A DNA stretch of 64,000 bases, taken from assembly GCA_026770705.1 (NCBI GenBank), contig JANJGN010000036.1:1178001-1242000 (forward strand), written 5' to 3'. Below, piece by piece: positions 3,715-57,022 of the stretch (position 1 is the first letter of the stretch; each line of letters starts with the position of its first letter). This stretch comes from Isurus oxyrinchus. Its lineage: Eukaryota. The position numbers and the translations under genes are program-made. The notes below the pieces were generated by a model. It had not been told where the DNA came from. It was given only the letters and a program-made list of their open reading frames with translations, and did no database searches.

Positions 3715-3720
3715 AATAAA
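3715..3720 (+). promoter_or_regulatory. Candidate polyadenylation signal of type I copy 1
   Basis: AATAAA ~840 nt after the stop; ATTAAA at the homologous position 40491-40496. Confidence 0.3.
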
Positions 3721-3889
3721 CTCTGGTCTGCAGAGGGTCTTGTGAATCCTGTTTGTAGCAGATATGAACATTCCTAAATTAACAGTAATTTATTTATTGT
3801 AAAGGTTCATTCTGCACAGATATTTCGAGAATTTGTCGAGACACTTATTACAAGATGCAAATTGGAAAGGCCATTCTGCTAAAGCAGTA

Positions 3890-8120: not shown

Positions 8121-8399
8121 CTGGGAGGAAAATCGTGTGGAGATGAAAGAACGGCATAGAGCAGATGGTCCATGCTCCGCTGAACCAAAGGAATAATTCT
8201 GACTGAACGAGACAGGCGAGAAGAGAAATTCTTAGTGAAACAGTTACTAAACTATTAGCGTTAGATTCTAGGTTTCTTCAGTCTAATGTGTTGCTGTTGA
8301 AACCAGAATAAATTAACCTGTTCACAATGAATTGAACATGACACTCGGAATTAGGAGCCTTTTGCCCCCCTTCAATCGAATGTCATAAACAGAAATGTT

Positions 8400-9065
8400 G
8401 TCCAATTCAGCACCATTGCCTTTGTCCTCAGTTTGACCCAGTCTGGGCTGTGCACCGCCTGTGACGCGCCGTGTGTGGTCTCCTAACCTGTAAACAGGAA
8501 ACCCTCTGCTTACATTTACAACGCGCTGCTTTTTCCAGTGAGTGCATATGTGTGTGTGGGCTTGGGGCGGCGGAGGTGCCCATGTTTATCTCGCGAACAA
8601 CATCATTAAAGGCATGATGTGTGTCTCAAACCCGTTCATTTTCTGGGTGTTGCTCTGCGCAGTTACCGCTGTCACACTTTTGTAACCGCTTCTTCAAAGG
8701 AAGTGATTTCTCTCTCCTTATCATAACAGAACGCATGGTGTTGATTTTGTAGCTCAGTTATTGTATCTCAGGCTGATTTCCAGGCCCCGGCGGATCAGTG
8801 TCTCGCTCGGAAGTAGCGACAATGTGCACTGCAACACGGCTTAGTTGGTGGTGCTGGGGAGGGAGAGGGTCGGGGGCGCTGCAGGGTAGGGGGAAGGGCG
8901 TTGGCGGTGCTGGGGAGGGGGCGGGTGGGTCGTTTGCGGTCTCCTGGTATAAACCGGACGCTTCTGCAACTGGTTTACGTCGTGACATAATATAACCATC
9001 CAACAAGGGTATTTTCGGGAGAAGTTAGCGGCGCATGAAGACGCTATTCTCTGATCATATGAGCA
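8400..9065 (+). pseudogene. Type I-like relic: promoter/first exon and 5' half of V exon
   Basis: First-exon donor TTCCA|gtgagt at 8537; acceptor gctcag|TTATTGTATCTCAG at 8758 matches gene A V start (gctcag|TTATTATGTCTCAA); GSSDNVHC and AVSWYKP remnants with frameshifts; rest of V and C1 missing. Confidence 0.7.
8590..8710 (+). mobile_element. Degenerate Deu-domain SINE remnant (paralog at ~44690-44830)
   Basis: Resembles the reverse complement of the better-preserved copy at 59565-59995. Confidence 0.5.
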
Positions 9066-10454
9066 TGTATAATTTCTGAGCCCTTACTCCGTCCTCATGT
9101 ATCTCATCATTTCAGTGATTAGCTTCTGAATTTTTAAGTCTATCAGTCTCTTTGGCGTTAAAGCGGATGGAGGGAGATATGCTGTTTTGACATGTCAATG
9201 ATGAAATCAAAACCCAATTTTCTGTTTACCAATTTCTCTCCCGATTCCTCGAAGTCTTCAGCTGTGCTCCATTTAGCTTCCAGCACAGAAACAGTGCATT
9301 CGGCCTTTTAGTTCGGCGCTGTTACTGCTGCTCCACACGAACATCCTTCCACCCCCTCTTCATTTAACCCCATCATATATTATTTTCGTCCATTCTCACT
9401 CATGTGTTGATACAGCGTCACCCATAAATCCATCTCTGCAAGTGACCTCAACCACTTCGTGTCGAAGCGTGTGCAACATTCTCTGTGCTCTCAGGTTAAA
9501 TAGATTTCTCCTGATTTCCCACTTGCATTTATCAGTGACTACCTGATATTGATGGCTTCGAGCTCTGGGCTCCCCCACGAGGGAAAACACCTTGTCTACG
9601 CCTGCCCGGAAAATCCTTTCATAATCTTAAAGATCTCAGGTCCCTCCTCAGTCTTCTCTGTTCTTGAGAAAAGAAGAAAGCCCGTTCAAATTTTCCTGAC
9701 CGTTATAGACTCTCAGGTTTGGAATCGTTACAATGAACTTTTATTTCACTTTTCCTGTTTCTCCATATTCTTTTTGATAATATAGAAACCAGAATTATTC
9801 ACAGGACCCTACGTGTGGTCAGGCTAAGCTCAAATATCCGTTTGATAAATCCTTTCATCTTTACATGCTTATTTCCGTAGACCTGTCCACACTTTGGGCC
9901 TATGATTTTTGTGACCTTATTAACATCTGTTACCAATTTCAATGATTTTTCTATCGGCGCCTCAGAACACTCAGCTCCTCCATACAACTTAAACTCTTAT
10001 TTTCTAGTGATTATGCAGCCGTCAACCGAGACCTAAGCCTAACCCAAACACCAATATTACTCCTTCCTGACAAAATGGTCGATATATAACTTTTCATCCA
10101 AGTCACAGAAAGATATCCGCTGGGTAACTATAAGCTAGTTAGTCTTTCATGCGTTGCGGGCAACGGGTAGCATCAATAAGTGGAATTGGTGAGCAATTCA
10201 TAATATGTGGGTTCGTTACGGTCAGACAGTTCTGATTTGTAAACGTTTGTGAAAGTGTCGTCATGCTGAACTTATTTAAAAGAGTTATATTTTTCAAGAT
10301 TTGTCCGAATGGAAAGTTAAAATGAAGGCAGTAGATAGAACGTGTATGGATGTCTAGCAGGCCGTCATGTGCCTCTCAAGATGTTTGATTGAACCAGCAT
10401 GACCAGTGTGAAGGAGGTGTGGGAAGATGGATATAAAATAGATACAGACATGGA

Positions 10455-10680
10455 TAAATCTATCTATCTATCTCTCTATTTATCTCTCTATCTATCTCTC
10501 TATGCCCCTGCATGTCTGTCTATCTGTCCATCCATCTATATATCCATCCAACTATCTCTCCATCTAGCTGTCAATCTACCTGTCCATCCATCTGTCTATC
10601 GATCTATCCATGTATCTATCTATCTAGCTGTCTTTCTATCTATCTATCCTTCTATCTATCTATCTAACTATCCATCTTTT
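10455..10680. repeat. (TATC/CATC)n microsatellite
   Basis: Direct inspection. Confidence 0.9.
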
Positions 10681-11349
10681 TTTTTTTGACTGAAGCATCC
10701 TAACACTGTAAAATAAGCAATGTAAAACCCAACAGAAGTTTGGTAACAAAATGGAAAATGAGCGTGTAGAGGAGAAATTACCCCAGGGCTGAAGGAGGTA
10801 TATTTGTAATGCGACCAGTTTTTGTGTTTGCTAATGCCCATCTCATGGAAATTTCTACTTCCATTCGCCATATGGTTTTCATTCTGCTTGCATCCCATTC
10901 CGCCACACGATCAGAGGGAACTGCCAAACGGGTTGTTCACTGTTTCCTCTCCAGTGTTTTAATAGGATTTGTAACAATGGAACTATCAACTGTCGGCAAT
11001 GTTAGGTATCCCCCGCCAGTCCCCGACATTTACAGTGCCTGTGTATGGTGTGTTCGCATGTGCTCCATCCACTTCCTCAGGGGAGGCTCATGAACCTTTT
11101 CGGGCGTATCATGTCCTTGCCCCCCCCCCCCCCCCACTGTTGATTCTTAATGTCCAGATACCACCATGTCAGAGAACATAATAAAGAGAGTGACGAACTT
11201 CATACCAACCAGAAATTCTATTGACCCCAGGTTTTCCCCATATTCACAAATTGCATGTTCAACCATGGGGCTGAGTCAATATTTACTCGAAATGAACGCC
11301 AGCGAAAGCGAAACTGTTTATTTTAATATGTCACCCCCGACTGGTTTCG

Positions 11350-11990
11350 GCCAGCCTTTCCACTCCCATAACGGGTGAAGATCTGTCGTTGTCCTGCTCA
11401 TCCCTGAAACCAGCGTCCTGCCTTTCCTCTGAATCCATCCACCTGACTACTGACTGTGGCCTCCAAAATATTGGCTGCTCTTGTCCCCAAATGCCACAAC
11501 CCTAATCCAGACTTCACAATCTCAATGCTTAATTTCAACAGCGCTTTTCCGACAAAGATACTCACTTTCTTCTTTCTCAAACACCATTTATCCCGAATAA
11601 TATCACCCAAGTCATTAACAGAACAAAGATTAAATCCTTTTGCCTTCTTGACAAGTTCCAGTGTTTCCCAGTATCCCAATGAATCGATTCGAAAAGGCTT
11701 TCCGGTCCCTACCATTCAATTTGTGCGTGAACAGCTGACCATACCAATCTAATAGGGTGCATTCTCCATTCCTCCCTCAGGCCACATGTTATAACATTTC
11801 TGCTTATTCCTCGCTGCATCCGCTGCACAAGCGTCACAAATCCTGCAAGGAATCATGCACAAACCATCTGGCGAACACTTGTCCTCCCTCAGCTCCCTAC
11901 TCAAAATGCCGGCAATTTCCGTGTCAATGTCCTTGCCTCTCTTCAGGAGCCCGCCGTGCAGGCATTGTTTACCATTTCCCTTCACATAGT
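11350..11990 (+). mobile_element. Old L2-like LINE fragment
   Basis: Degenerate sequence resembling the L2 ORF2 C-terminus (LKMNASESE, H....L.SL...P remnants). Confidence 0.4.
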
Positions 11991-13609
11991 CACGTCTGAA
12001 GTATGGGGTTTTTCACGGTCATTCTCCGAGAGTTTGCATAAGACACCCCTGTTCGCTGGGTGTTGTAGTGTAGGTGGATTAACTGATCTATTAAGGTTAC
12101 AGTAAGACAATCAGCATTATTTAAACTAAGGAGCAACTCGCCCCAATAAATAATGATCTCCAGCTCTTCGAAGTGGGGTAATATTTTCAGCTGTTGTATT
12201 AGACTGAAAGATTGCATCAGTTCGAGCAGCTGTTTGTGTATGAAGGACAGTATAATTTTGTGTGATTTCATTATCTTGAGGAGTTGTATCAGTTTGATAG
12301 CTAATTCAGTTTAACCCTGTAGTCCACAAACACGACTTTCACAATCCAACATTTGGAATTGACTTACTGAGTGGCTGCAGTGAAAGAGGGCAGCCACATC
12401 CCAGTGTACCTGACAATCAGAGTTGACAGTGCCAACGTGTGTTAGAAATTAGATTATTAAATAACGACAACAGAGCTAAGGGCATCACTGAGGCAGAATG
12501 AAATGTAGAAGTTGGCCTGATGCTGTTGGAATGAATGCACCGTTTCTTTGTGTCAATGGTATCTATTTAGTTTAGTTCATTAGTAAGATCGGAATTTGCA
12601 CGTTTTGGAATCTTTCCAAAGCAGACACTGTACAACATATATTCTGTCAAATCAATGACATACGTTGATGACATAATAAGTTTGTAGAAATAATAAAAAA
12701 CACAAACTATGTGAAAAATGATGTAAAACCAGTATCCTCGTGGAGATACCGAAGGGGATAAATTAAAGGCTTTGGGAATGTGTTGCTCTAGTGGTTAATT
12801 CAGGGACATTGCCTGCATCTCGAAGCAACTGATTATTTCACACAAAAGATCATGAACACATTTTACAATTTCAGGAAGTATATAACATGGTTCTTGCCGT
12901 CATTGTTGTTCCTGGTAACTTACTGAAACCATTGACGTTGTGCAGTGTTTCTAGCTTTAGTTTGTGTCTAATAATGGTACATGGTCTTTTAGTTGTGACA
13001 GTTTTGCAGATACCCGTCCAGTAATATCATTTCATTAATTCATAAATGCTGGATTATTTTTGTCCCTTAATTCTATTGCATCACTTGAAAATGAGCCTTT
13101 GTTTGTAGCTCCCAGGTTCTCCGAATTGTCGACTTAATTGCTTCTTTTCTGAATTGTATCCTGTTGGATCAGACCTCAGTGCAGACATGGTCCTGAGGGA
13201 AACTCTGCGTGTGAGTTTCAGTCAGTGCGATATCAGACTGCGGAAGGCCCACTAAATACAATGAAGTAAATGGTCCCAGTGACCACGTCAAGGTGAGTAC
13301 TTGTCGCTGTAGAACTGCACTTAGCATCATATAATCATGGAAAGTTTACGACACAGAAAGAGGCCGCATGGCCCATCTTGCCTGCCCAAGCAGAAAAACG
13401 AGCCACCCTGGAAGCCACCTCAGGCTGGGGATTAACCGGATGGACTGACCTGAATGCACTGGACACGTATCACTGGGGGCATCTATCAGTGTAGAGCTAT
13501 GCAAAGCAAACTGCGTGGAACATCTAAAACCAATTTATCATGCATCATTGGAAGTCGAAGCCTGTGATAAACTGTTTGGAATGTGCGTCTCCAGCTGGAG
13601 TAGAATATC

Positions 13610-13830
13610 TGATGCATTATGGAGAGTAGAAACTCAGGAAGTGCTGGAACTACTCAACAGGTCTAGGAGCATTAGTAGAGAGAGAGAAACTGAGTAAAGG
13701 TTTCGAGTCAAATATTCGGTTCAAAAACTCAATTCTGCTTCTCTCTCCACCATTAATGCAAGATCTGTTGAGTATTCCCTCCTTTTTGTATTTTGTTTCA
13801 GATACCAACATCGACAGTCGTTCCTTGTAG
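13610..13830. repeat. Palindromic short interspersed element (related copies ~4760-4895, 20240-20410, 26505-26580, 57810-57970)
   Basis: Imperfect inverted repeat gctggaactactcaacaggtct ... agatctgttgagtattcc. Confidence 0.65.
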
Positions 13831-15879
13831 AGCTCAGTGTGGTTCCCTAATCAGAACCGAACACCTGACTCCAGTGACCATCTGTTACTGGGCGTGTTTC
13901 TGACTAGATTTATGGTTAGGATGTGTCTTGCAACTGAGCAGAAAACCTGATCCGAGCTAACATGTGTTAGTGGAAGTATTTATGATTGTGAAATTGTACT
14001 GAGGGTGGGTCGCTAACTGTAATGGATGAACCTGGCCCCTGTGATGATGTGGCACTGCGAATAACTGTCATTCTAGCATTGAACTGAGTCCGGGTCTCAA
14101 CTGATGTGAAACAAGTCAGTTACACGTGAAATCATTGTTTCAGGCGACTGAACTGGATGTACTTTTCCATTTTGTAATCAATGGGAAAAGGGAAGCTTTT
14201 CGCTGCGGTTTGATGTTTGACAATAAGTTTATAAATTGTAATATATTGATGATGTTTTGTCCCCTATTCAAATGTAATTTTAACTATTGTCTAACGAGTA
14301 AGCAGCAGAAAAGCAGTTACTCTATATAACCACTCTTCAAAATTATATATTGTTCGTATAAGCATAGTAATTCTAAAGACTGAAGTTGCTTTAGTGCTTA
14401 TTCGTCACGCTGCTAGCCCTGGCACAGTGCAGAAAAGTGAAAGGATTTACGGTCACGAGCTCTTAAGTATCTTATCTTGCTAGCACAGTGTCTAATCTGG
14501 GAAATGTTTCTTAATTATTTAAGGTCGGTTACTGAATAAGTTTTCCTGAACTCGTTCGTGTGTATGATTAAGAGTCTCGACGCATGTAACCTGCACGTGA
14601 ATCGATTGTAATCAGGGAGATGTGTTCCTGCGAGGAGACACTCTCGAAATGAGGAACATATATTTCATGTTTTCACAATACAGGAAATAGCGACAGGACA
14701 GTAGAAATAACGTTAGTAAGCCGTTAATAATGTAAGGAATAGTGCGCTGCATCCATAAATATCGCTTTTCAATATTATGAAATAACTGAAAGCATCCTAT
14801 GGTGGAGAGATTTAGCCTCCCGACAATCTCGGTCAATTAGTTTCCCTGGAGTTCACTCTTGTATTCAATGGAGACTGTTCTACAGTAATTAACTCCACAT
14901 TACATCCCCCTCCCAAAGGGAAGTATCATTCTCATGTTTCCACCTCTCAATCTCTTTGATGTTTTAAATTTCTCAATTTGCTTATTCCTCAACTGCCTGT
15001 GTTCTAGAGATCGGAGTCACAGCCAGTTACGCTTACTGACAGTTATGATCTCTCAGATATTACGTTATTCTTGTAAATAACACTTGAGCGTCTGGAAAGT
15101 TTGAATCTCTACTTCGTAAAATGACGAACAAAAATCTGGAGGGAACACTGAATGCAGTATAGTCAAGGTTCAATAAATGATTTAACATAATCCTTCCGAT
15201 TTTATTCTCCTTCCACTATAAATGAGCCCCAGTGTTTAGATTGCACCTTCATGGTTTTGATTGCTCTCATTTCTGGCTTGAATCACTTGTGACTCTCTTC
15301 CCCCAAACCCTTTTCCCTACTGTTTTCTTTATGAATTATTTGCCTCATTTTACCATAATTATCCTGTACTTTTTATCATTCGTTCGTTCATTTCTAACGT
15401 GAGAGGTAGTTGCTCCCTTTCAGATTTCCCTCCCTTTTCTGCATCTGAATCCTCAACAATTGTTTATTATTCCCCCATTGCCTCACAATGCTCCTCGCCT
15501 TAGAGTGTGAAGTTGCTGTCTGGATGCCCATTAATATTTCTACCCATGCCAGCCCGCCCTCTCCGCTCCAATGGCAAGAAACGTGACCTGCTGTTTCAGC
15601 CTTTGCCCAACCATTTTCCCTCGGTCATCTCGCACGCTTCCCATTTCGAGGGTTCCATTTGGAATGCATTAGTTTGTTTTCGGTTAGCTGCAGCTCTCAT
15701 TGGAAATCCTTTCCTCAGTATTGGCTGTGCATTGCTCATGTTTCCTGCATCAACTTTTCTTTTCCAGGACGTTCATGATCGTATGGGTCTCGTTCCCTTC
15801 TTTCACCCCGGCTTGCTTTCACATCGTTCGTTTCTGAATCTTCCTTTCCTTCCTCAACTTTTCCATCTCTATTTAAGCG

Positions 15880-16200
15880 GATAGACTTTCCACCAATATC
15901 AGACATCGAGCTCAACAGCTATCTTGACCATGCACCCTGAAATCCAGCTTCTTGTAAGGGCTCTGTTACTCAAGTTTCTCGGGCTCATTTCTCCTGTAGC
16001 TGTTATGACACTTGACACATCGGTGTTTCCCAAGTGAAGTACTTTCCTCCTCAGCAGACGTTTGCCACTTCACTGCAGTGAGCTGGCCCAACCGTGTTCA
16101 TTTTATTTCCAGCATTGCTGCCCTCACTACCTGCTCTCCCAGCCGCAGTCTGTAGAGGGAGCCTTTGTCCATAGAGAATTTTATTCCCTCTGTCTTGTGT
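15880..16200 (+). mobile_element. Penelope-like element fragment
   Basis: Degenerate SYLD...ASCK....QFL.L...CS-like motif typical of Penelope ORFs. Confidence 0.55.
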
Positions 16201-17329
16201 TCAAGAACTCTCTCGCTGTCAATCGATCTTCTTAAAGATCTTTCTACACAGTCAAATGAATCATTCCTCTGAAAGTGAGAGAGAAAATAAATTGTTTAGA
16301 AAATATCAAAAGATTCAGAACAAAAGTAGGCACAGCAAGAGCCAAAGCTCCATTTCTCACTTCCATAGGTAACCTCTCTGCACCTGCCAATTGTTAGCAA
16401 ATTTCATTTCCCAATCTACATGAGTGCTCAGCTAAACCTAATCTGGCCTCAAGTAAACTTTGTTCAATTCCGAAATATTGTTGCCCATCCCTCAACGGGA
16501 ATTTATCTCAAAGGCTTCCAATATCATTCAAACTCAATTGATTCGCTAAATATTTCTTAACCTTCCCTCAATGTGTGTTCACCGTAAACTTTCCTGTTAG
16601 CATGAAAACGCATGTAAATCCCTAGATATCCTTATGCTTCCACTTCTCTGTACCTGCACTGGGCATTAAAGACTTTGAGATACTTGCATTCTTCTCATTC
16701 TCTCCCCTTGCACCTCCCTTACCTTAATTGTTCCAACGTTGCCTCCCGTGCCTGTAGCTGCTTTGAGTCTAAGCTCTAGAACTAGTTTCCCAAACATTTC
16801 CACCTCGGGAAATATCTTTCCTGTTTTAAAGTGTTCCTTTAAATTGTGGCTTTTATCAATTTCCTGTCATCTGACCTCATATCTCCTTGTGTAGTTCAAT
16901 GTTAGTCCGTTCACCAAAAATCTGTGATAAATATTGTTTTTGCTCCGCGCCTAGGAATATAGGGGCAGGAACAGGCCATTCAGCCCTTCGAGCATGCTCC
17001 TCCATTCAATACGATCATGGCTCATCGAACACTTCAATGCCGTTTATCCACACTATCGCCATAACTCGTTACATTATTGTTAGTCATAAATCTATCAATC
17101 TGATGGTATTTTGCTGCTTTAAATACACTTTACAAATGTGAACTGTTGTTACCCTGACCCAACAAACTCTCAAAGAATGGGTCCACTGAATGCATACAGA
17201 TTGAACTGAATCTATGCTGACCAATTGTCATCATGGCGGGAACGGAATTATTTATTTAAAAACTAAAGATCCCTTTGCTCTTCCCAATCGAATGCTGCGG
17301 GGATAGTGTACGGCTTAGATGCAGAGAAG

Positions 17330-18230
17330 CACATCCTGCATTATAACCAATAAAACACTGCTAAGAAATGTAAAGATGTGTAGTGATTTATGCTCTGTAT
17401 GCAGTGTCACATGAAGCTCTCCCACAGCACTTACCACATGCGTTAACTGCAGAGTTTAGTACCTTGCACACGATCACCTCAAAGCATCTCAATTAGATAC
17501 AGCACTGTTAAAACACAGAGAGTCTGCTCTACGCTCTCTAATCAAACACTAAATATTAAAATGTACAATGCAGGTTAGATGCATATTAATCATTCTTCGA
17601 CAGTCCAAGACCATAAAAGTTAGCATAAATACGGATTAAAATGCCCCATAAAATTTCATAACAACCATGCTCCAAGCAAGGGTACACATCCGATGAAAGC
17701 TCCATTTTCACTGTTCCATCAAGTTCTGCATGAACAGGTGAAGCACAGTTTAAATACAGAGTAAATCTCCCTCTACACACTGCTCCACAAAACACTCCTA
17801 AAGAAAGTTTGACCGTGTTTAGATAGAGTGTAAAGCTGCCTCTACACTGCTCCAGAAAGCAAGCCATGGAAATTACAGCAAGGTATAGACACAACTCCGA
17901 CACAGAGTTACAGCCGTCCCTTGAAATACTGACAGGAATGGTAAAGAACTGGATCGGTACTGAGTAATGCTCCTTCAGTAGTCGATGAGCATTTTAAGGG
18001 CAAGCAAAGCATGGCATGGATACTGTGTAAACATCACATTTAAATGTCACAGCATCAAATCAAGGACAGGTGTAGATTGGATATATCCCGATTACAATTG
18101 CTTCAGTCCTGCCTCATTACATTCAGCGCATGTAAAGCAGCATACCCATAGAATAATATTGCTTCCTTTACGCTATCTCCACAACATCTTAGGGCAGGTA
18201 CAGTACCGGGCAGGCACAGAATAATGAAAT
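17330..18230. repeat. Degenerate ~65-bp tandem satellite
   Basis: Recurring unit approximating agagtaaagctccctctacactg...aaacactc...ggttagatac. Confidence 0.75.
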
Positions 18231-20469
18231 AGTGGAAAGTAATGCTGGATTTAGTTATGCGTCATCTGTTTTAATTTGGATCGAATTGGAATTGGGGAAC
18301 AGCCTCGGAAAATAAAACAGTGTTGAAAAGTAAATTAACCCCATTACAACCGCCATTTACAACCAGAAGTGGAGAGTAAGGGAATTTTTCTTTTATGGAA
18401 ATGCTGCCTGAAAGGGCGGTGGAAGGAGATTCAATAGGAGCTTTCAAAATGGAAATTTGATAAATATCGAAAGGTAACAGTTACAGGGCTATGGGGAAAG
18501 AGTAAGAGGGGAGTGGGACAAATTGGATCTATCTTTGAAGGAGCTAGCACAGGCACTGTGGGCCGAATGACTCATTTATTCGTCATTTCTGGTTTTATTC
18601 ATTTTGTCACCGCTGTCTAGCCTCTGGCTGTTGGCAGAGAGACAGAGATAATTCCACCCCCACCCATCCCTTCACACCCCACTTCGCAAGTCAACTCTGT
18701 AGTGAGTACTTTCCCCCCACCCCCCCCCCCCCACCCCCCCTTCCGCCCACCACACCCCATCACTGGGGAATATCAAGCAGAGTAATCCTCCATCAAACTA
18801 TTTCTAATATGGTAACCCGATGTCGCTAAGTGAATTTCTGGGTGTTCTGGAATGTCCTCTATTTGTTCAGTGAGTTCTTCAATACTCGCTCTTGCTCCTG
18901 ACTCAAATATCATCGCCACAATATTCGAAAATGGGTCGAAAATAATTCTGAGCAGTAATAGGAAACTTAACGTCTCCCATCGGATAACACAGCGTGGGGG
19001 AGGTGGGGTGGTCTATTCAGCCTAATGCGCTTGTGCTGGTGCATCGAAAGTGTAATCCAATTCATCCCACTGCCTCCTGCTCTTTCCATTATAGCCCTAT
19101 ATACTATCACTTTCAAGTATTTAACCAATGTTCCATCTTGAATGTTCCTGTTGAATTTGCTTCCACCGCCCTTTCAAGCACCACCTTCCAGATCACACAA
19201 CCCATTGTGCACAAAAATCAATTCTCCTCGTCTCCCCGCCTCTGGTTCTGTTCCCTATTGTCTTGAATCTGTGTCTATCAGGTTACCGAACATCCTGTCC
19301 AATGGAAAGAGTTGCTGCTTCGCAGCTAACCCTGTGACCCCTTTGCCAGGCAGTCGATGTCTACTGGACTCACACCTACCTCCACCACTTGACCTTCGCT
19401 GTGACCTGAGGGAGAGCTCCACCTGTCATTTTAAACTGCACCTTCCCCTAGGCTGGATAATGCACAGAGGGACAAGGTCTTTGGTGAGGAGGTCGGGGTT
19501 TGGGGGGAGGGGTTGGGTTGTTGGGAGTTGGTGGGGTTGACTGTGCAGGAACTCAGTCTGTTGATTTTGTTCCCGTTGCCTGTTGGAACGCCTGTACAAT
19601 GAGACGTGCAGTTCACCTCTCAATTCAACTCCCCTCAAGAGCAATTGGTCTCAAGAACAAGACGAGGACCTTCAGCCAGTCCAAGCTGTTCCCCCAATCA
19701 ATGAGATCGTGGCTCACCTGTATCTTAAATCCATCTACCGGCTTTGCTTCCGTAATCCTTAATCCCCATAGATGGGAAAAATCTATCAATCCTAGTTTTA
19801 ACATTTCGAATTGACCCCCAGCCTAGGCAGCTCTTTCGGTGAAGATTGGCCTTTCCCTGCACAGCTTTGTGTGAGGAAGTGCATCCTGATACCACACCTG
19901 GCTCCAATTCTAAACCTAACACAGGGCCCTGTGGGGTTCAGCCATTGAGTGAATTCACTAAATTAATTTAAACACCTCAATTGACTAACCTCTTAATCTC
20001 CTATATAACAGGAATACTAATTCATTCGAAGGAAGCAGTCCTCATAATTCAACCGTTTAATCTTCGGTAACTTTTTTGTGAAACTGCACGGAAAATATCT
20101 AGACTTGGTGAGAATCTCGCCCCAGCTCCGCAGAACTACCCCTTTAACATTCAAACTGACTCCTTTTTCCATAAACAAACAGGATTTTAGTTTCAAGTAT
20201 AAATTAAAAAAACCCTGCAATGTTTAATATTTAAAATGTAAACAGAAACTGCTGGAAATGCTTGGTGTGCGGATCTTTATTTATTCCTGGGGCAGGCAGG
20301 TAAAGTTCATGTTCAGGAGTCTCATCTGCCTCTGAAGTGGCCATCAACTAGTCTTCCAGCCATATAGATGCTGACGGATCTGCCCTCTCTTTCCAGAATT
20401 TCCTGTTTTTGTGAATTTTACCCGAAATAATTTTTCTCCAGTTCATAGAGATATTTTAAATAGGTTAAA

Positions 20470-21180
20470 GGAATAGAGGGACCTGGGGGATTATGAGCAC
20501 TAATCTTTGACAGTGACCAGAGAGGTCGAGAAAACTGTTTGAAAAAGGGATATAAGGCTCTCGGTTTTAATAATGAGGCAGAGAGTACAGAAACACGGAT
20601 GCATAGTTCAACATTTACAAACGGCTGACTCTGCCTCAGCTGGATTATTGAGTCCAAATGGGCCCTGCACATTCGGTTGCATGTCCAGGGCCTTCAAGAG
20701 GGTGCGCAGGGACACTTACCCAGAATGGGTCAAGGGATGAGAGGTTCTGGTTCATGTGGAGAGACTGGAGAATCTGGGATTGTTCTCCTTAGAGCGGAGA
20801 AGGTTAAGGGAGAGATTTAATCGACGGCTTCAAAATCAGCAAGGGGGTTTGGATCGAGTAAATAAGGAGAAACTGTTTCCACTGTGCAGGAGGGTCGGTA
20901 ACCAGAGGGGACACAGATTGAAGAGAATCTAGAAAAGAGCCAGAGGGGGAGATTTGGAGAAAGTTTTTTTTTAACACAACGACTTGTTGTGACCTGGAAG
21001 GCGCTGCCTGTAAGGGTGGTGGAAACAGATTCAAAAGGAAATTTCAAAAAGGGGAATTGGATAAGTAATTGAAGGGGAGACATTTCACTGCTCTGGGGGA
21101 TGGGTGAGTGTGGTACTAATTGTGTAGATAATTCATATGGCCTCTTTCTATGTTCGATCAGTCTATGATTCTATGATTTC
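20470..21180 (+). mobile_element. CR1-like LINE 3' fragment
   Basis: LEKLGLFSLE.RRLRGDL-like motif and (ctatgatt)n tail. Confidence 0.75.
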
Positions 21181-21574
21181 TATAGAATATTTAATTTCAT
21201 TGGGAATTCCCAAAATGTTTGAAACTCATTTTGGAATGCAACAATTTGAATAATGTAGGCAAATTAATTGAAAGATTAGCTGGGGAATTATGGAAATAAA
21301 AAATAATTGAAACTCATCAATTAGTCAGTAATTTATTTTAACGTGGATGTGGTTTGTGAGGGACTTTTCGCATACAATCTGATTACAGGTCAGAGTGTCC
21401 TATATATTCATGAATCCACCCCCCCCCCCAACCCCCCACAGCCCCCTCTCTCCTTCTTTCCCTCACACACACACACAAAAACACATACAGACTCGTCAAT
21501 GTGTTTCATATTTTAATGAGTTTTCTCTCCCCCTTCCACCCCTCCCCACACACACACACATACACACACAGTAA

Positions 21575-21894
21575 GTGAGGATCGAAGTTCTCTGTCAAGC
21601 TCCCTCCCACCTCGGAAGGAATGGACTCAGGATTGGCCACTGTGTCCTGCCTGGTGAGTGGCCTTATGCCAGGTTTCGTGCGGGCCCTCTGGAGTGTTAA
21701 GGGTAAACATGGAGAGAGCAGAGTGAGGACGAGTCCTGCTTCCTGGACAGCGATCAAACTTACAGCCTGAACAGTTACCTGGGAGTGCTGACCACTACCT
21801 GGAAGGAAGGCTCCAATTATTCCTGCGGTGTCAGCCACAGTCCCTGCACTCACCCCTTATCAAAACGATCAGCCCAAGTGGTTGCTCGCTCTGA
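21575..21894 (+). pseudogene. Immunoglobulin light-chain constant exon relic, most like cartilaginous-fish type I / sigma-cart
   Basis: Across frameshifts reads SEDR/KFSVKLPPTSEGMDSGLATVSCLVSGLMPGFVRALWSVKGKHGESRVRTSPA/LDSDQTYSLNSYLGVLTTTWKEGSNYSCGVSHS/SPLIKTISPSGCSL*; both C1 Cys, Trp, YSC.V.H and C-terminal interchain Cys present. Confidence 0.85.
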
Positions 21895-22661
21895 GAGACT
21901 GGTAGTCTGCCTTACAGTTTGATTACTTGAAGATATTTCATGCAGAGGCACAGTTTATTCAACGCGTGAAAAATACGCAGTTTTTGCAATGTTATCGCTG
22001 TAACAATGTCAGATTTTGGCGAGGAACACGAATGTCAAATGAAAGCAGAAGCGAACGAAATTATTTTCTGACCTTGTGCCTCGGAATTTCCCGTGGAATT
22101 GTTCCCAGTATCCTATGTGCCAAGTTCCGCTATGTGCACAATCCCCTCCTTTCAGACACTGACCATGATGTGTTTGTGAACTTGTATCACACAGCTTGTA
22201 ATAAACACCAAGTGCTGTTATGAAACTAAATTGGCCGATCATTATTCAGCACTGAAAGGAATGTGGGGAGGATTGACGGTGAATAATTTACAGTTCAAAT
22301 AACAAAACATAGAATTACGTAAAATGACAGAACAAAAACAGAATTGCGTACAGTAACAGCACAGTAACATGCACCTATACTATTCTCATCAACAACTTCC
22401 TGCGGGAACGAGTTCCAAATTCTGCACGCTCTCTGAGTAAAGGAGCTTCTGCTGAATTGCCAGTTAGATTCTTTCTGTAACTATCTTAACATATGACCAA
22501 TAATTTCCAAATCCTGCATAAGTAAAGCCTTATTAAACTATTTCTTAATTTTAAAGCCCTCAGTCAGGTCACCCTTCAATCATCTATTAATTTTAGAGGA
22601 AAGAGCTACAGCCTGTTCACTCTTTCCTGGTAGATATAAGCTCAGTTCTGGGTGACGGACA

Positions 22662-22704
22662 ATGAGCTTCCTTGGTGCCTGTGCATTGTCCCCTCTCTTC
22701 CAGG
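22662..22704 (+). pseudogene. Type I relic E: isolated leader exon
   Basis: MSFLGACALSPLFQ-G, near-identical to the gene A leader; donor mutated to ag; followed by intron-1 homology, then 3'-flank homology. Confidence 0.8.
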
Positions 22705-24269
22705 AGGAGATATCCTGACAGGTTCTGATGAAGTGGAGGAGAGTTTGGTGAGCTCAACCACTGGCAGGAGGGTAGGTAATCAGAGGGATACAGACTGGTG
22801 ATAATCAGCAAAAAAAACAAAAGGAGAGATGAGGATTTATTTTTAAAACAGCGAATTATTGTGACCTGGAAGGCGCTGCCTGAAAGGGCACTGGATGTAG
22901 ATTCAATAGGGACGTTCAATATAGGAATTGGGTAAATTGTTGAAGTGGAAAAATACAAGGATTTTGGAGAAAGATTAGGACGGAGATTGAGGACTAATTG
23001 GTTAGAACATTCAAAGAGCCAGCAGAGCCGAATGGACTCCTCCTCTTAACGGTGCAATTTCAATTCAGCCTCTGCACGTTTCAATTTCCTTCTATTGGTG
23101 TCTTTAATTGCATTCTGCCCCTTTATACAGTATAGGAGCAAGGTGTAATTCAAATAATCTTTGCAAGGTATCTGTGTCCGAGTTACCAATATATTGAAGC
23201 ACATTTGAAAACCAATGATAACTTTGTAACTCAATTTTGTTTGATGGTTTATACCAGAGGGTACTCAATGTGTCTCTTAAGCTAACTTACAAATGCATTT
23301 CCAGAGTGAATGTGTGCAGGTTAGAAATGGAGTTAAGGGCCGAGAGGACCGGTCAGTCCCTAGCTGGAGATTTTGGCTGCATCAATATAAAAGCTGCAGT
23401 GCAATTGGATCCAGCGCCTTCACTGGTTGTGTCTTGGAGCTGAACATTTAGACATACTCTTGAAAGAAATTTAGTTGCAATGCACTTGCCCTTTGGATAT
23501 CACAGTTCAATGGATTTTACAAACTAGAACCATAGATTCATAGACACTTATAGAATATAAGGAGGGCATTCGGCCCGTCACGCCTGTACTGACTTTTCGA
23601 ATGCACACTTTAGTCCCACTCCCTAGCAATCAGCGCAAGACTCTCAGAATTAGTCCAGTAAATGTTCATATCGAAGCTGCTTACAGCAATATGCATCAGC
23701 TGTGACTGAAAGCGGTTTGCTGACTGTATTAAAAATTTACAAGCGTGAACACTATTTCCTTCTCACATGAGAAGAACAGTCAAACCTGCGACTAAAATTT
23801 AGACGGTGTTTCGCTGAGTTAAGTGAAATATTTCCAACGCATCTTTAATTGCACAAACATTTAAAAACTGGTCTGGAAACCGTTGGTGTGCTGTTCTCTG
23901 GACAATTGTGTTAGTTATAAAAATCTGATCGAATGGAGAACTTCTTGTTCCTAATGGATATAAATATTCCCAAATTAACATGTGCTCTTTCTCCTGTTAA
24001 GCTACATTCTGCACCGATATTGTAAAGAGTATTTGGAGGCACTTGTTTCAAGATGTAGATAGAAAAGTTATTTCTGCTAAACACAACTCATCCATCCGGG
24101 AATTTCCTGTCCCTCTCAACCATCAGGACAACAGTTCTTTCATAAACAATTGCATGTGGGTTCCCAGACCCAATCCCTTCGAACCCAATTCTCTCTACCC
24201 AGAGAACCATTCAGAATGCTGGTCGTTCTGTGTCTGATAGGCCTGTTGACATCAGTCCTCAACCTAAGA

Positions 24270-30200: not shown

Positions 30201-30845
30201 CTGACAAATATCTTTATATGTGTCCATTGTTATCAGTTGTCCCGTGAACGTGCTTTAATTAGGAGACAGATTCTTAGCATCGAGTGAATTCCTGCACCTG
30301 ATCCTATGAATTAAAAACCTTCACCGAACAGATCACCAACTCATCTGTCCCTGTCTCTGCTACTTTGGCCCTTAGTCCAATATTTGTTTGGAGAGCCCAG
30401 ATGAACGATACAAGTAGGGGGGCCACCGGTTCTCCTGGTTGCAATCAGCACCATGGCGTGACATCTGATGCTGTAGGTTCCGTCCGCCTCCCTCGTACCG
30501 GGATTCTGTAAGTGGAGAGATTATAGTTAGATTGTCACTGGTTATTGAGGGATAGGAAGCACTGCCTTGAAAGACATAGTGAGTAATTTAAGAACAGTGA
30601 CATCATTATCTTTAATTATTCTTAGATTAAGTCTCTCATTTGATTTTCTTCGCCTTATAAGAGGGACAAGTAAATAAACTCATAGGATCAGGTCAAATGC
30701 CTTCACCTGTTCACTGGGTAACATTTTAAACTTAGTTAACAATGATTCTGGCAGATTGCAGTTTACCATTCTGATCCGTCTCTGATTCACCACAAACCCG
30801 CAGCACTTGGAAAACAAGTGTCTAATGCAGAGATCCCTTGGACAG

Positions 30846-31085
30846 CTTGACGCGGTGATTTCACACTGTTTTCTCTCTCACCAGTTTGCTACCTCAGGCG
30901 GAGTGGCCACAGACTGACCTGAGCTCAGTCCCAGTCAGTAACTCCACATTCAGATCCGGTGGAAATATGACAAGCTGTGCTATTGAAAGTATTAAAGCAT
31001 TTTGGGTGAGGTGTCCTGGTGAGTGCCACATGCATTAGACGTACTGTGGTCACCGTCTGTGTGTCACAGTGGTCAAGTGGTAGAA
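30846..31085 (-). promoter_or_regulatory. Conserved type II promoter/5'UTR block (paralog of 57023-57260)
   Basis: 38/39 nt identity at 30897-30935 vs 57074-57112; shared CTGAGCTCAG palindrome, CACATG E-box and TGTGGT RUNX-type site. Confidence 0.55.
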
Positions 31086-33181
31086 TGCCACTCAAGTTGT
31101 CGCTGGAGGGTGCGGGGTTGGTGGAGGTGCTGGGGCCTGGGTCACAGAAAACCAATTGTATGGATGGGTTCTATATATTGCAGTTAAAGATTACTGAATT
31201 CTGGGCATGTGAGAGCCGTTGGCAAGGCAAGCATGTATTAACCATCCCTGGTTGACTCTTGAGGTGGTGGCGGTGAGCCACCATCTTGAACTGTTGCAGT
31301 CCATGTGGTGTAGGTGCACCCACAGTGCTGCTAGTCAGGGGGTTACAGGTTTTTGACCCAGTGACAGTGAAGGAACTGCTGTTCTTATCAAGCCAGGATG
31401 CTGTATGGCTTGGAGGGCAACTTGTGCTTGGTGGTGTTCCCAAGTATTTGCTGTCTTTGTACCTGAAGTTTGTTGGCGTCGCAGCTTTGGAACGTGAACA
31501 CCAAGAATTCAGAGTGTTATATCATTGTACTCAGTATAATCAATTTTGTAAACATTTGTACAAGATTCATGATAAAATCTGGTCAAGACAGAGACTGGAA
31601 TATATTGGGTAAAATATATGTGGACTGGTTTGAATTTTAATTACGAGTATCTCATTCCCTATATCACAAATTACGCGGAGATCTGGACTGGGATTCTAAT
31701 GTAGCAAGCCGGTCATTCACTGCAATTATCAAGAATCTAAATGAGTTCAGTTCCGCTCCTTCCGTGCATTGTCCACCTTTCTGGAACGTCTGATTGAAAA
31801 GGTTTTCGACTGACTTATTCTATAGTATAAAACGCCTTTTGTGATTGACCTGAATTCAGTTTTCTGAGTTCATTGCAGTATTCTATTTACCAATGATTTA
31901 TTGATTGACCCCCTGAAGAGATTTTCAAACAAGCATACATATTGCACTTTGCATTGTGCTCTAAGCGTGTTCATAGTAGTTCAATGGAAAATTAACTGCA
32001 CAGCTAATTTTCCATTGAACTTTGAAATAGCTGTTAAGCTCCTTTGATTTTACAGTTTACAGAGTTACATAGAATTTTTAGCATAGAAACAAGCCATTCG
32101 ACCCGACTGCTCGTGCTTGCATTTTTGTTCTGCACGAGCCTCCTCCCTCCCCTTCTTCATCTCACCATATCCTTGCATTCCATTCTTCCGCATGTGCTTA
32201 TCCAGCTTCCCACTTAAATGCAAATCTGCAAGTGCCTCATCCATTCCCTGTGGGAGTGGGTTCAACATTGTCCCCAACGCCCCAGTAAAGAATATTCTCC
32301 TGAATCCCAGACTGGATTCAACTAATATTAATGGCCCCACATTATAGAGGACCATAGGAATACAGGGCAAGGCCATTGGGCCTTTCGAGCCTGCTACCCT
32401 ATTCAATCAGGTCGTGGCGGATCTGGTAGTGGTCTTGAATCCACTTTCCTGTCGCCGCCCTTAGGCCTTGGCTTCCTTGCCAAACAAATAACTGTGCAAC
32501 ACGGGGCTTTGAATACATTCAAAGACTCAGCCGGCACTACATTCCACAGACCAGCTACCCATTGGGTGAAAAACAGTTCGTCATCTTTTTGTTAAAATGG
32601 AGACCTTTATGTTTGAATTCTATGGGATTCCCGATTGGATTTATTGAAGGCCAATATTGTTGAACACATGCAGAAGTAGAGTCATCTTCCTTCAGCCTGC
32701 CAAAATAAACCACTTCACAATTTTTAAGGCCCCGACTTAGTTACCCTTCAGTCTTCCCCTTTTTTCAGATTAAAGAGCTCCAGCCGGTTCATTCTTTCCA
32801 GATTGTTATAAGCTCTCAGTTCCTATATCATTCTTGTGAAACATTAACCGTACCCTTTCCAGTGGCTCTGTATGCTTTCTAGAATATGCAGAGTTGTGTC
32901 CTGTACTCCAGCTGTGGTCTAACTAATGTGAGAACATACCTGGTGTATTTTGTAAATCAGAGGATAAGTGCGTGACAGCACTTGGACCTGTAATAAACAA
33001 GAAAACCGCAGAGAGCTGCCTACCTCGGCAACATGTTTCAAACCCTATGGTGTATCTGTGCATTAACCCAGAATGCCATTCAGGCTGCATATTTCATACC
33101 TACTTCAGACCGAAAGGAGAGCAGGTTCTCAGTGAGATTCGGATCGGGGGCTCAGGGAATGGCCATCTGAAGTCACGGGCA

Positions 33182-33224
33182 ATGAGCTTCCTTGCTGTGT
33201 GTGCATTGTCCCATCTGTTCCAGG
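33182..33224 (+). CDS. Gene A leader exon
   Basis: MSFLAVCALSHLFQ G|gtgaga, phase 1; splices to give ...FQVIMS-QPVLSQSP; conserved in relic at 22662. Confidence 0.8.
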
Positions 33225-34256
33225 GTGAGATACCTTAACATGTTCACATAGAATGGAGCAGAGTTGGGATGGTGTAAATAAGGAGATATTGTTTCCAATA
33301 GCAGGAGACCCGGCAACCAGAGGGACACAGATTGAAGAGAACTGGCAAAAGGACCAGAGGGGTTGGGAGAATGGGGACGAGAATATCTTTTCTTTACCCA
33401 ATAATTGCTGTGATCTGGAAGGCTCTGCCTGAAAAGGCGATAGAAGCACATTCAAAAGGAAATTTCAAAAGGGAAATTGGATGAGTACTCGATAGGGATA
33501 CATTTGCAGGGATATGCAGATGGAGCGGGGGGTGGTGGGGGTGGGGAGCTGTGGGGGTGGTGGGGGGTGGGGTCAGAATGGGCGATAGCTGGATAGATCT
33601 CTCAAAGTGCCAGCCTTCTGAAGGGCCGAATGGCCGCCACATGTGCTGCACAGATCTATGAGATGCAATTCAGTTATCAGGTTCGATGCAAAAATAGAGC
33701 GAATATAATCAACAACTTGGGAACTGCATCGGTCAGGAACAATAAATGGAATTCGTCGGAAAGATAACGTTCCCTGGTTTAGAAGAGGTGAGTGGCTAGA
33801 TCGACATTATTGTTGATTGAGAAGAGGACAGAGTTTCAATGGATTATTAGAGCGAGTTATGAAATCTGGAACAAAATAAAAAGCCCAAATCTAACAAAGA
33901 AGAACAGGAAACGAAGGGATGATGAGAGAAGAAATATAAGAGTTCGAAAATTTAGGTTTAAAGCAGTTCTTTTAAGTTATTAACTTCACAAAGTTCCCAT
34001 TTGTGTATCCCAGTGTTTGTCCCAGATTTACTGGTGAATGGACTCGGACTGTGCCTTGGAATCAGAGGAATAGAACGGCCCAAACAACCAACTGTGGGGG
34101 ATTTTTTGATATGAACTATATATATTTTTAATGACCGTGCCTCCTCCCTATCGGGGTGTATTCGTCGGACGCTAGCTTCGGGAGGGAGGCTGGCGGGTGC
34201 GGGGTGGCGGATTGCACCGTAATCTGAGGTAATTTGTTTATTTCTGTCTTGCTCAG

Positions 34257-34595
34257 TTATTATGTCTCAACCCGTCTTGTCCCAGTCTCCACCGGTTCAG
34301 ATACTCCCTGCGGGGAGTCGTGCTAAACTGAGCTGCCTCGTGGAGAGCTCAGTGGTTGGCTTCGTCTTCTGGTACAGACAATCGGAGAGAAACAACATGA
34401 AGCTGGTTTACACAGCAAGCAAGTACCTCCCCGCAGTGGGGAGATTTTCCAGCGAGGCTGGTTGAAAAGCCGATAATTGTTCACTGCTCATTGTGGATAC
34501 CCGGAGAGAAGATTCTGGAAAATATTACTGTGCAATCCGAAATTTCACAAATATGGCCAGAATATTTGGAAATGGCTCCCAGTTAGTGATTACAA
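34257..34595 (+). CDS. Gene A germline-joined VJ exon (Ig V-set)
   Basis: QPVLSQSP...AKLSC...VFWYRQ...RFS...*...EDSGKYYCAIRNFTNMARIFGNGSQLVIT; ag/gt boundaries, phase 1-1; one premature TGA. Confidence 0.9.
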
Positions 34596-34697
34596 GTAAA
34601 TTCCATCATTATTCCATCGAATTGGGTATTTCTACAGTAATTAAAAGTATGTGGTTTGAACTCATAATGGTGTTTTTCTTTCATTTGCCAAATGTAG

Positions 34698-35003
34698 AGG
34701 GCTCCCCCACCATATTACTCCTCGCCCCGCCAGAGAATGAGATTCCCTCCATGGAAAGGGTCCCGTTGTTATGTTTGATCAGAGGCTTGTCCCCCGATTC
34801 CTATCCTTTCCGCTGGAATGTTTCTGGACGGGATACCGAGGGACAGACCGATTCTGGGACAATTGAGACTGACGGGACCTACACCATCAGGAGTTACACC
34901 AGCCTCTCGGCGGAATCTTGGAGAATTGGCGTTCTCTGTACTTGCGCCATTCAAATCAACTCCAGTGAAAATCTTCTCAGTGCAAGTGTCTCATCTCAGA
35001 GAG
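34698..35003 (+). CDS. Gene A C1-set Ig exon
   Basis: PTILLLAPP..E...VPLLCLIRG...FRWNVSG...DGTYTIRSY...ESWR.G.LCTCAIQ; tgtag acceptor; G|gcagcg non-canonical donor. Confidence 0.88.
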
Positions 35004-35659
35004 GCAGCGATTAACAGTGACCGTTTAACAATTTATTTACTGCTGATGGCAGGTGTTGCCAATTTTGTAAATTAGAATTGTCCATTTTTCCGTGTGTGTC
35101 CATGTCGCATCATTTTATCATCGATCTATCATATATCTCTCCATCTTTCAGAGTTAAGCTTTCTGAAATTCTAACTCCATTTGTTCTCTCTACCTCAGAG
35201 GTCTATGGACGCTCTGTCACTGAGAAATATTTTTGTGCGCAAAGGAAATAAGGGATGTGGACAGGGCAGGAAAGTGCATTTAATCTGCAAGATTAACAGT
35301 GGTCTTATTGAATGGATCTCTTTGAGGCGCCGAATCATCTCGTGCTCCTATTTCCTGTGTTCTTGTGTCTGTCTAAGCATGGTTCCATGCTAATGGATCA
35401 TTTGTCAGTGTGCAAAACTGAAAAGCGTGATTACATTCCCAGTGTACTACTTTGTCTCACCATTCCTGTTTTCAATTATCTATTCATATCTCTATCTACT
35501 TAACATTCACAATATTCCTGTCTGTCTTAGTTAAGCGGTGAGATATAAAATATCTTCTCTATCTGTGTGTCTATCTGTTTATCTATCTATCCATCTCTCT
35601 TGCTCCCTATCAAACAATCCATTCCTGTCCTAGTACAGTTTAAGATAACTGCGTTATAT

Positions 35660-36850
35660 ATTTTTGTGTCTGACTCTCTGTCTCTCTGCAACCCTCTCAC
35701 TACCTCTCTCCCCCTCTGTCTCTCCAGGTCCCTCTCACTGTTCGCCACATCACTTTCTCTCTCGCTCTCTGTCTTTATCTATTGAAAAATGTATTCATTT
35801 CTCTATCTATCTCACTTTACCTCTGTTTATCATGTCTATTTCTATAGTAGTTAAATGGTGCGTTATAAGAAATCTGGGACATTCATCTATCTTCCCATTT
35901 GCCGATCTCTCTCCATCTCTCACCCTCTTTCTGTCTCTCTCTCTGTCTCTTTCGCTCTCCCTCTATCCCTTCCCATCCAGTTAAAAATGTTCTGTCTATG
36001 TTTTATGCTCTATCTGTCACACATTCTTCTCTCTATCTCTAAATATCCATGACTTCATTCATTTCTCCGACCATCTTTTTGTTCTGCTTCTCCCACCTCT
36101 CCGTATCTCCCTCTCTGCCTTTCCCCATCTCCCATTTCTTCCTTTCTCCCCCACTCTTTCCAACTCTCCCCCTTCCTCTATCCCTCCCTCCCCATCTCTC
36201 CCAGACCCCAATTCCCCCTCCATCGAAGTCTCCCTCTCTCCCCTAGCCAACATCACTTCCTCTTTCTCCCCAACTTTCCCTCTCTCTCTTGCTCCCTCTC
36301 TGCACATCTCTCCCTCTTCTCCTCTCTCCCCAACTCTCCCTCGCTCCCCCATTTTGTCCTTTCTCCCTGTGTCTCCCCAATCTCTCATTCTATCCACATC
36401 TCTCCTCTCTCCGTCTCTACCCCTGTAAGTGATCTGCTCTCTCTATCACTTTCTGCCCATCTCTCCCTGGCTTAACATTTATTTGCTATTAAAACAGTGC
36501 TCTATCTACCTCTCCCTGTTATTCTCCCTCTATCTCTCTTTAGTTATCTCTCTATGCTTGTCCTATTTAAATAGTGTTCCATAAGATCGCTGCTCTCTCT
36601 CTCTCGCTTTCTCTCTCTCTATTTCAGCCTTAATAAACGTGAATTTATCTATTTCTTTGTCACTTGCTCTCAGTATCCGATTCAAATTGCATTTTAAAGA
36701 TCTCTTCTCATTCTCCATTTCTGTCTCTCTCTTTCTATCTACAGATATCTACCCTGTTTAAGTAGAGCTTTATAAGATCTCTGCCCCTTGCGTTAGTCTC
36801 TCTATCTTTGTCTCTATCGCTTGTCTCTTTCAATCTCGTTCTACTTCTGT
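35660..36850. repeat. CT-rich low-complexity tract in the gene A C1-TM intron
   Basis: Paralog of 330-1745. Confidence 0.9.
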
Positions 36851-37019
36851 CCTTTTTCAATATTGTTCTGTAAGGTCTCTGCTCTATTTCCAGATAATGA
36901 AAGATATAAAAATCTATTCACGTCTCCAGGTGAAATCAGGCATCTAATTTGTGATTATTTTCCCTATATGTTTAATTAATTCCACAAACTTTCTTTTAAA
37001 TTAAAGGTTTTTTTTGCAG

Positions 37020-37139
37020 ACTCTCCGTTCTTTACCACCTGCAGCTTCCTGCTTTCCGGGGGCTTGCTGGTGACGGCGCTTCTCCTTATGGGAGTGATCG
37101 TTGTGGCCTGGAGAAGGAGTTGCCGGACGCAGCAGACTG
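37020..37139 (+). CDS. Gene A transmembrane exon
   Basis: DSPFFTTCSFLLSGGLLVTALLLMGVIVVAWRRSCRTQQT; 120 nt, ag/gt, phase 1-1. Confidence 0.85.
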
Positions 37140-37271
37140 GTACCGATTTTTGGGAGATGCTGTAACTTCGCGGCGCTCTCAATACATCCATTTATCAATG
37201 GGTTATTGACACTTTCAACCTGTTCAGAGTGAAATGTTCTCATGCTGAGTTCAAATTTTACATTCGAAAAG

Positions 37272-37330
37272 GAAAAATGAAGAGTAATGAGGAAATGAAA
37301 GATTGCAGAGAACAACGAGAGAATAAAGAG
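37272..37330 (+). CDS. Gene A cytoplasmic exon 1
   Basis: GKMKSNEEMKDCREQRENKE; 59 nt; weak aag acceptor, gtaaaa donor. Confidence 0.7.
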
Positions 37331-37967
37331 GTAAAAGAATTGAATTGTTGCCTTAAGCCTGGATACATTTCACAAAATGTTAGTCCTAGGTTTAAATTTC
37401 ATAGTTATTGTGATCAATCTAGATAACTTTGCGTCATTGGTAGTGCAGGATGGCAGAAAAAAAAAGCTTCAATTCTTCTCGTGGGGACGATTAAGGGGTA
37501 ATTTAATCGAGAGTTTTAAAATGATAAAAGGATACGATCGTGTCTGTAGAAATAAACTCTTTGCCCTGGTGGAGCGGATCTGGTGTTTGTGTGCGGGATG
37601 AGTAGTAGGTGTTGGCGGGATGGAGTCCAGGACAAGGGTGCAGGACTATAAAATTATCGGGATGTCATTCAGGGGTGATGTGAGGGTGCACTTTGTCCCA
37701 CAAAGGTGAGTGGAAATCTGGAGCGCTCTCTCCTCATAAGTTGTTGAGGCTGCGGGATCAATTGGAAATGCCAAATCTTAGATTGATAGAGTTTTGTTGG
37801 GTAAGGGGGTTAATGATTATGGAACCAAGGTGGAAGTTATGGATGGAAGTTATGGTACAGAACCGCCATGTTCTAATTGAATAGAGTGGAGGGGCTGAAT
37901 GGCCTCCTGCTATCCCGATGATGAAGGCGTTCGTTACATTAACAGATTCGTTTTTTTTTCCCCACAG

Positions 37968-38012
37968 ATGCTTTATGCCCGCTTAGCCTTTAATCAGGAT
38001 CCCACACTTTGA
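37968..38012 (+). CDS. Gene A terminal coding exon
   Basis: tttccccacag acceptor; MLYARLAFNQDPTL*. Confidence 0.85.
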   Translation: MLYARLAFNQDPTL

Positions 38013-56268: not shown

Positions 56269-56357
56269 CTGGACAGAGATTGGGAGACATTTACGATTCG
56301 TTTGCTCCAAATGATAATAATGCGCATGATCTCAATTAATTTCTCTTGCTCTGTTAC

Positions 56358-56967: not shown

Positions 56968-57022
56968 CATAAAGCTGCAGCATTTGGAAAATGAATATCA
57001 GAGATAAATATCCCTTCGACAT
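56968..57022 (-). CDS. Gene B leader exon
   Basis: MSKGYLSLIFIFQMLQLY G|gtgagt, 55 nt, phase 1; same-length relic at 30845-30791. Confidence 0.8.

Follow-up and report, generated by a model that had tools for sequence, protein, structure and literature searches.

A sigma-2-like immunoglobulin light-chain constant-exon pseudogene inside a non-rearranging receptor cluster of Isurus oxyrinchus

Described systems and the receptor cluster of the window

The PRARP or VJC1 genes that Fu and Ohta are said to have described in 2019 reportedly combine a joined VJ exon, one C1 domain and a transmembrane (TM) segment, and reportedly occur as paired genes. The receptors of the locus analysed here are like them in having a joined VJ, a single C1, a TM segment and pairing. 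PRARP has been named as a VJ gene of the MHC (PMC10751288), the term does not occur in PMC12227049, and no PRARP sequence was found among the 34 proteins matched by our receptor profile (see below). UrIg2, which in elasmobranchs lies in one complex with IgH, TCR-alpha/delta and some immunoglobulin light-chain (IgL) genes, resembles the receptors here as a VJ-C1 gene that does not rearrange and that is linked to rearranging Ig loci, including some for IgL, whereas it has many C domains and lies beside IgH, TCR-alpha/delta and psmb5, and the receptors here have one C1 followed by TM and a tail (PMC12227049). The receptors of Hypanus are found on a 169.7-Mb contig, which, judging from table S1 of PMC12227049, is likely separate from chromosome 26 with its UrIg2 complex. 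Shark IgL genes are arranged as V-J-C miniclusters (PMC4279169, PMC12227049), and the isotype sigma-2 is also called sigma-cart, type I, NS5 or sigma-prime (PMC5985310 Table 2; PMC4279169). Non-rearranging VJ genes linked to rearranging loci are sought as traces of the gene that was split by the RAG transposon (PMC12227049, PMC10751288), and such a trace locus is provided by the sigma-2 array that adjoins a large non-rearranging V-C1-TM family in several shark orders. In the literature searched, whose coverage did not extend to the two likeliest papers (Fu 2019, Ohta 2019), we found no description of sigma-2 inside this receptor cluster.

The window, by which we mean the whole 64,000-nucleotide stretch of DNA analysed here, is made up of a tandem array of non-rearranging receptors, now decayed, for which we keep the labels 'type I' and 'type II' of the first-pass annotation. 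The type I gene (33182-38009, + strand) comprises a leader (33182), a joined VJ exon (34259-34597) with a stop codon at 34463-34465, C1 (34700-35011), TM (37019-37144) and a tail with a Tyr motif (37965-38009). It stands head-to-head with a type II relic (30313-31087, − strand) in which the promoter, a dead leader and a partial C are left and V has been deleted. A type II gene (55943-57022, − strand) has its leader from 57022, a VJ exon with a stop at 56419-56421 and C1 at 55943-56266; the antisense reading of its promoter (+ strand) extends over 57075-57246, with a second copy at 30898-31068. A type I leader relic (22662-22703, + strand), which has lost its GT splice donor, begins a unit of which a 3′ remnant survives at 23053-24261 (+ strand). 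This remnant corresponds to the 3′ portions of other type I units (38215-40830 and 3119-3883 are homologous to it), so that V, C and TM have been lost from the unit. The nearest matches to the receptors were those of Cetorhinus and Mustelus. Almost all genes of the window are broken, as birth-and-death turnover would have it.

A stop in VJ is present even in both of the most complete receptor genes, and no intact receptor was found in the 64 kb. Two homologous and heavily decayed units (43769-46786 and 8123-10332) likely represent a second type I subtype; relics of a V and a C are present near 44973-45083 and at 45277-45505, respectively.

The light-chain exon that is the subject of this report shares its strand with the type I genes and occupies the position of the spacer of a head-to-head pair, and the leader relic at 22662 starts 768 nt downstream of its stop, in agreement with a spacing previously given as ~770 nt. 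The suggestion that it sits roughly where a type II partner would be expected did not hold, as the exon is off the type II strand and gene-body position and no type II homology was detected in the 10.5-21.6 kb region.

Structure, decay and isotype of the constant exon

The exon occupies 21572-21894 (+ strand) and is assigned, by its sequence, alignments, trees and Pfam matches, to the constant exons of IgL sigma-2. Its first full codon is at 21574 and its TGA at 21892-21894; a likely splice acceptor AG (21570-21571, + strand), preceded by a pyrimidine tract and a CA microsatellite, adjoins it, and its start matches that of the sigma-2 C of P0046. Its residues open with SEDR and close with Cys-Ser-Leu-stop, and the core of a C1-set domain is present (Cys 21648, Trp 21690, Cys 21824). 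The terminal Cys (21883) is close to the stop (21892), a transmembrane exon is absent, and a sigma-2 3′ untranslated region (21895-22225, + strand) contains AATAAA at 22200, after which no poly(A) tail was found. Counted against intact sigma-2 chains, the exon has three frameshifts (all + strand): the first, at 21586-21599, is net 4 nt short (14 nt versus 18 expected), and the second and third, at 21744-21745 and 21839-21840, are each 1 nt short, with 2 nt in place of a codon. It therefore lies in four pieces on the + strand, and the reading frame from the acceptor runs into a stop after 27 codons. Two of the pieces matched consecutive parts of the Pfam C1-set profile (4-49, E 7.6e-4; 53-81, E 3.2e-5), and frameshift-aware alignment of the horn shark sigma-2 C to the window scored 282 at 21888, with ten shuffles scoring at most 52. 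Being broken by frameshifts, the exon is unable to make protein; it is an ordinary pseudogene of a known isotype and is now without function. The earlier description of a frameshifted IgL C exon ending in Cys-Ser-Leu-stop is borne out, as one C1 exon with three frameshifts, and of the span then given (21575-21894) the end is correct and the start is 1-3 nt off.

To judge the breaks we used four short-read runs from one sample of the window's own species (organism A) and short-read contigs from a second species (organism B). Organism A contigs span 21580-22335 in two of the four runs and 21597-22335 in a third, with no gaps and 16-17 substitutions relative to the window, and the pieces recovered from the fourth run are identical to the window. 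The variant form adds a nonsense codon at 21761-21763 and is likely a second allele. The 378 positions from 21565 to 21942 are covered by one organism B contig, which differs at 31 of them and has no gaps, so that all three breaks are common to both species. Other organism B contigs, with a similarity of ~80-85% and a greater depth in some runs, have a net surplus of 1 nt at frameshift 2, as expected of working paralogs. Across runs, organism B contigs tile the distance from the exon to the leader relic, no single contig bridging all of it. The three frameshifts are real and shared by the two species, and decay of the relic would predate the split of organisms A and B. That the frameshifts or the placement of the exon are assembly errors, and that a working sigma-2 gene exists here, is exceedingly improbable given gapless contigs across the breaks in both species and the extra nonsense codon in the second organism A form, even though the short-read contigs break off at the microsatellite (21535-21579) and continuity upstream of it consequently rests on the assembly.

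The two forms within the organism A sample differ at 16 of 756 sites (~2%, 21580-22335), which is high for alleles, and the second form may be a very recent duplicate rather than an allele.

A phmmer search of 1.84 billion representatives with the first 52-residue piece of the relic (E up to 0.001) returned 40 matches. The lowest E-values belonged to many-domain proteins, which were 25-37% identical by summed domains, and the best single-stretch matches among the 40 were P0017 of Mustelus (60%) and P0020 of Heterodontus (59%), with further ones in P0024 of Rhincodon (54%) and P0030 of Callorhinchus (53%); after these four cartilaginous-fish IgL chains the next single-stretch Ig match was a teleost chain (42%). 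The P0020 cluster includes the horn shark protein WKK30312.1, named Igsigma-2 light chain. The whole relic exon, with X at the breaks, was 49-64% identical to these four chains, 28-34% to seven other IgL C and 19-30% to 13 receptor C. It fell within the sigma-2 clade in a 25-row tree (support 87/91) and in a 32-row tree (98/95), from which six rows of the former, five receptor C and one teleost, had been omitted. The receptor C formed a separate clade (100/97) with the relic outside it and, together with the low identity to them, this led us to reject the exon as a type I or type II receptor C. No shark sigma, lambda or kappa chain was recognised among the 40 matches (six were looked up by name), in which sigma-2 ranked high, and this counts indirectly in favour of the sigma-2 (sigma-cart) assignment; the assignment is supported within a comparison set lacking shark sigma, lambda and kappa C. 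The sigma-cart-like identity first proposed is upheld to this extent, the closest single-stretch, single-domain relatives being IgL sigma-2 chains of cartilaginous fish. Compared with these genes (for example Heterodontus WKK30312.1), the relic is alike in its C1, its SEDR start, the terminal Cys before the stop, the homologous 3′ UTR and the supported clade, and differs in its three frameshifts, in being without V, RSS or detectable J, and in its location inside a receptor cluster. Searching a word index for the first piece of the exon yielded nothing, none of the 11 candidates being scored, and the protein atlas gave generic V-set and C1-set clusters only.

Sigma-2 and receptor genes in other sharks

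The value of the relic lies in its position and conserved neighbourhood, not in the exon itself. Linkage of the two families in other sharks was read from equal contig sizes, from accession order, which we infer follows chromosomal position, and from one automatic gene model, not from coordinates. A profile search with the type I family identified 34 proteins among 7997 candidates scored. In Heterodontus, 10 of 10 receptor matches are on a 22,062,530-nt contig, as are all four sigma-2 models with a stated contig size; the receptor XP_067878814 precedes the sigma-2 models XP_067878827-836 and is 13 numbers from XP_067878827. In Mustelus, the four receptor matches and one sigma-2 match (P0017) all lie on a 74,146,782-nt contig, where the receptor XP_078097085 and the sigma-2 model XP_078097086 have consecutive accessions.

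The Mustelus model also joins the two families in its own sequence. The N-terminal 60 residues of P0017 align with the type II promoter read in antisense at 57075-57246 (score 93; 0 of 300 shuffles reached it, maximum 57), a further peak falling on the other promoter of this type (30898-31068), and the match made without frameshifts scored 30.8 bits, against a maximum of 29.3 in 150 shuffles. In Cetorhinus, the type I receptor model P0060 has a first exon that matches the same promoter DNA (score 107), and three other N-terminal extensions that were tested gave no match to it. Since P0017 starts in type II promoter DNA, the Mustelus sigma-2 V-C is likely downstream of a type II promoter. P0017 (Mustelus asterias XP_078097086.1) is like the relic in having a degenerate-looking sigma-2 C and in lying on the receptor contig beside a type I accession, and unlike it in keeping V and an open C frame and in beginning in type II promoter DNA. 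Orthology of the relic with P0017 is weakly supported, the pair receiving 96/79 in the 32-row tree and being left unresolved by the 25-row tree.

Two further signs of orthology with the Mustelus copy were considered and rejected, the first of them in part. The shared 'SRVRTSP' motif contains one convergent residue, its first Arg, because organism B has Gly at this place (21720 is G in all contigs). The read-through tail of P0017 matches 21886-22104 (0 of 100 shuffles reached its score), and the more divergent organism B contigs, which are likely paralogs and align up to 22225, match this 3′ flank too. As a separate observation, P0017 itself looks degenerate, since it has another residue in place of the core Trp of the late C strand and continues past its stop into the 3′ UTR.

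Neither Rhincodon nor Carcharodon can confirm the linkage, since no Rhincodon receptor was among the 34 profile matches and the receptor of Carcharodon belongs to a scaffold of 396,902 nt, whereas 'IgL sigmaprime' of this species is listed on chromosome 27 by psmb5 (PMC12227049 table S1). No ray sigma-2 was present among the retrieved proteins. Overall, the shared contigs, taken with the relic itself, suggest that linkage of sigma-2 and receptor genes is likely common to three shark lineages. The proposal that physical interspersion ties this receptor family to an IgL locus is thus supported by the shared contigs of Heterodontus and Mustelus and by P0017, which joins type II promoter DNA to a sigma-2 V-C, and neither of the outcomes that would have spoken against it, best matches outside IgL C or an isolated transposed copy with no IgL linkage in other species, was obtained. 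The likely joint location of both families in other sharks makes their shared history testable with public assemblies.

Origin of the relic and relation of the two families

We searched the window for the V, J and recombination signals of a complete light-chain gene. In the upstream stretch (10500-21560), which is without detectable sigma-2 V or type II homology, three V queries scored at best 31-35 over 10.5-21.5 kb, compared with 31-41 for ten shuffles, and the only real matches of sigma-2 V queries in the 64 kb were the receptor V exons. The J queries, which are short, scored at the level of shuffles, and a J-like match at 18912 was rejected as lying within unrelated sequence and having no Pfam support; Pfam searches of ten upstream open reading frames gave no relevant match. 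No convincing RSS was found in the 64-kb window or near the relic exon, the single weak RSS-like match (39284) having an 11-nt spacer and three mismatches. These results match the earlier statement that the exon has no V and no RSS, and with no V above shuffles, no RSS nearby and no open reading frame the exon does not qualify as a functional IgL minicluster. We also observed that 12819-12913 matches part of the Cetorhinus model P0056 that is located between two type I units; some of the DNA between 10.5 and 21.5 kb may accordingly be spacer of the receptor cluster.

The relic is probably all that survives of a sigma-2 V-J-C minicluster that was flanked by a type II and a type I gene and subsequently lost V-J. 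The shared contigs of horn shark and Mustelus and the start of P0017 are the reason to think that such a minicluster was likely once inside the receptor cluster. By this account, an early shark would have had a sigma-2 array next to the receptor cluster, one minicluster would have reached the spacer between the genes of a head-to-head pair by local duplication or insertion, and deletions would then have taken out the type II partner and V-J. The alternative that a C-only copy was brought in by retroposition or transposition in this lineage, without inherited IgL linkage, would suit the lack of V, RSS or recognisable J in the window and the SINE-like repeats on both sides of the relic. However, the copy begins at an exon boundary with AG and has neither a fused J nor a poly(A) tail, which indicates a genomic remnant rather than a retrocopy and led us to reject a processed pseudogene; in addition, two other orders show same-contig linkage, and the Mustelus sigma-2 model still has a V and begins within the DNA of a type II promoter. 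We consider a transposed C-only copy very unlikely.

A further possibility is that the linkage is primordial, the receptor pair and sigma-2 having arisen by tandem duplication from one V-C1 gene so that the relic marks the ancestral site. Besides the linkage in three shark lineages, the C domains offer some points in its favour: the receptor C scored 41 bits against the horn shark sigma-2 C, its top per-domain score among 17 local proteins, and when sigma-2 and receptor C were held as one clade the AU test gave p-AU 0.574, with the tree 0.65 log units above the free tree. However, the receptor C scored 40 bits against a teleost IgL C and 25-39 bits against other sigma-2 C, four alternative placements were equally unrejected (p-AU 0.28-0.36; 0 of 5 AU tests significant), and the 107-column C-domain tree, which rejects none of the five placements, lacks the power to decide between them; in the 32-row tree sigma-2 C and receptor C are each a supported clade. 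The V domains point elsewhere, the receptor V scoring 17-29 bits against nine sigma-2 V and 50-57 bits against single TCR-alpha chains in the PDB. In addition, sigma-2 genes lie beside IgH in gar (PMC5985310) and 'sigmaprime' beside psmb5 in white shark (PMC12227049 table S1), and the receptor locus may for this reason not be the home of sigma-2. On balance a primordial linkage of this kind appears unlikely. We do not follow the first-pass annotation in taking the linkage to bear on the origin of the receptor family, given that V favours TCR-alpha and the C trees reject no placement; the adjacency records a shared chromosomal position and does not demonstrate that the receptors descend from a light chain. 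A broader proposal, doubtful but conceivable, is that sharks have a second antigen-receptor complex apart from IgH and TCR-alpha-delta, in which a rearranging sigma-2 array and a non-rearranging, TCR-alpha-like V-C1-TM receptor pair sharing a C-domain ancestor have been interleaved since early jawed vertebrates, with the relic as a fossil of the site.

Finally, the automatic models show two peculiarities at their starts. P0060 and P0017 both begin on the antisense strand of the type II promoter and are spliced from there onto a V further downstream; this hints at a bidirectional promoter for the head-to-head pair. P0061 (Mustelus XP_078097085.1) replaces the normal leader with intron DNA (window 33980-34057), a start that echoes the dead leader downstream of the relic and may be a coincidence.
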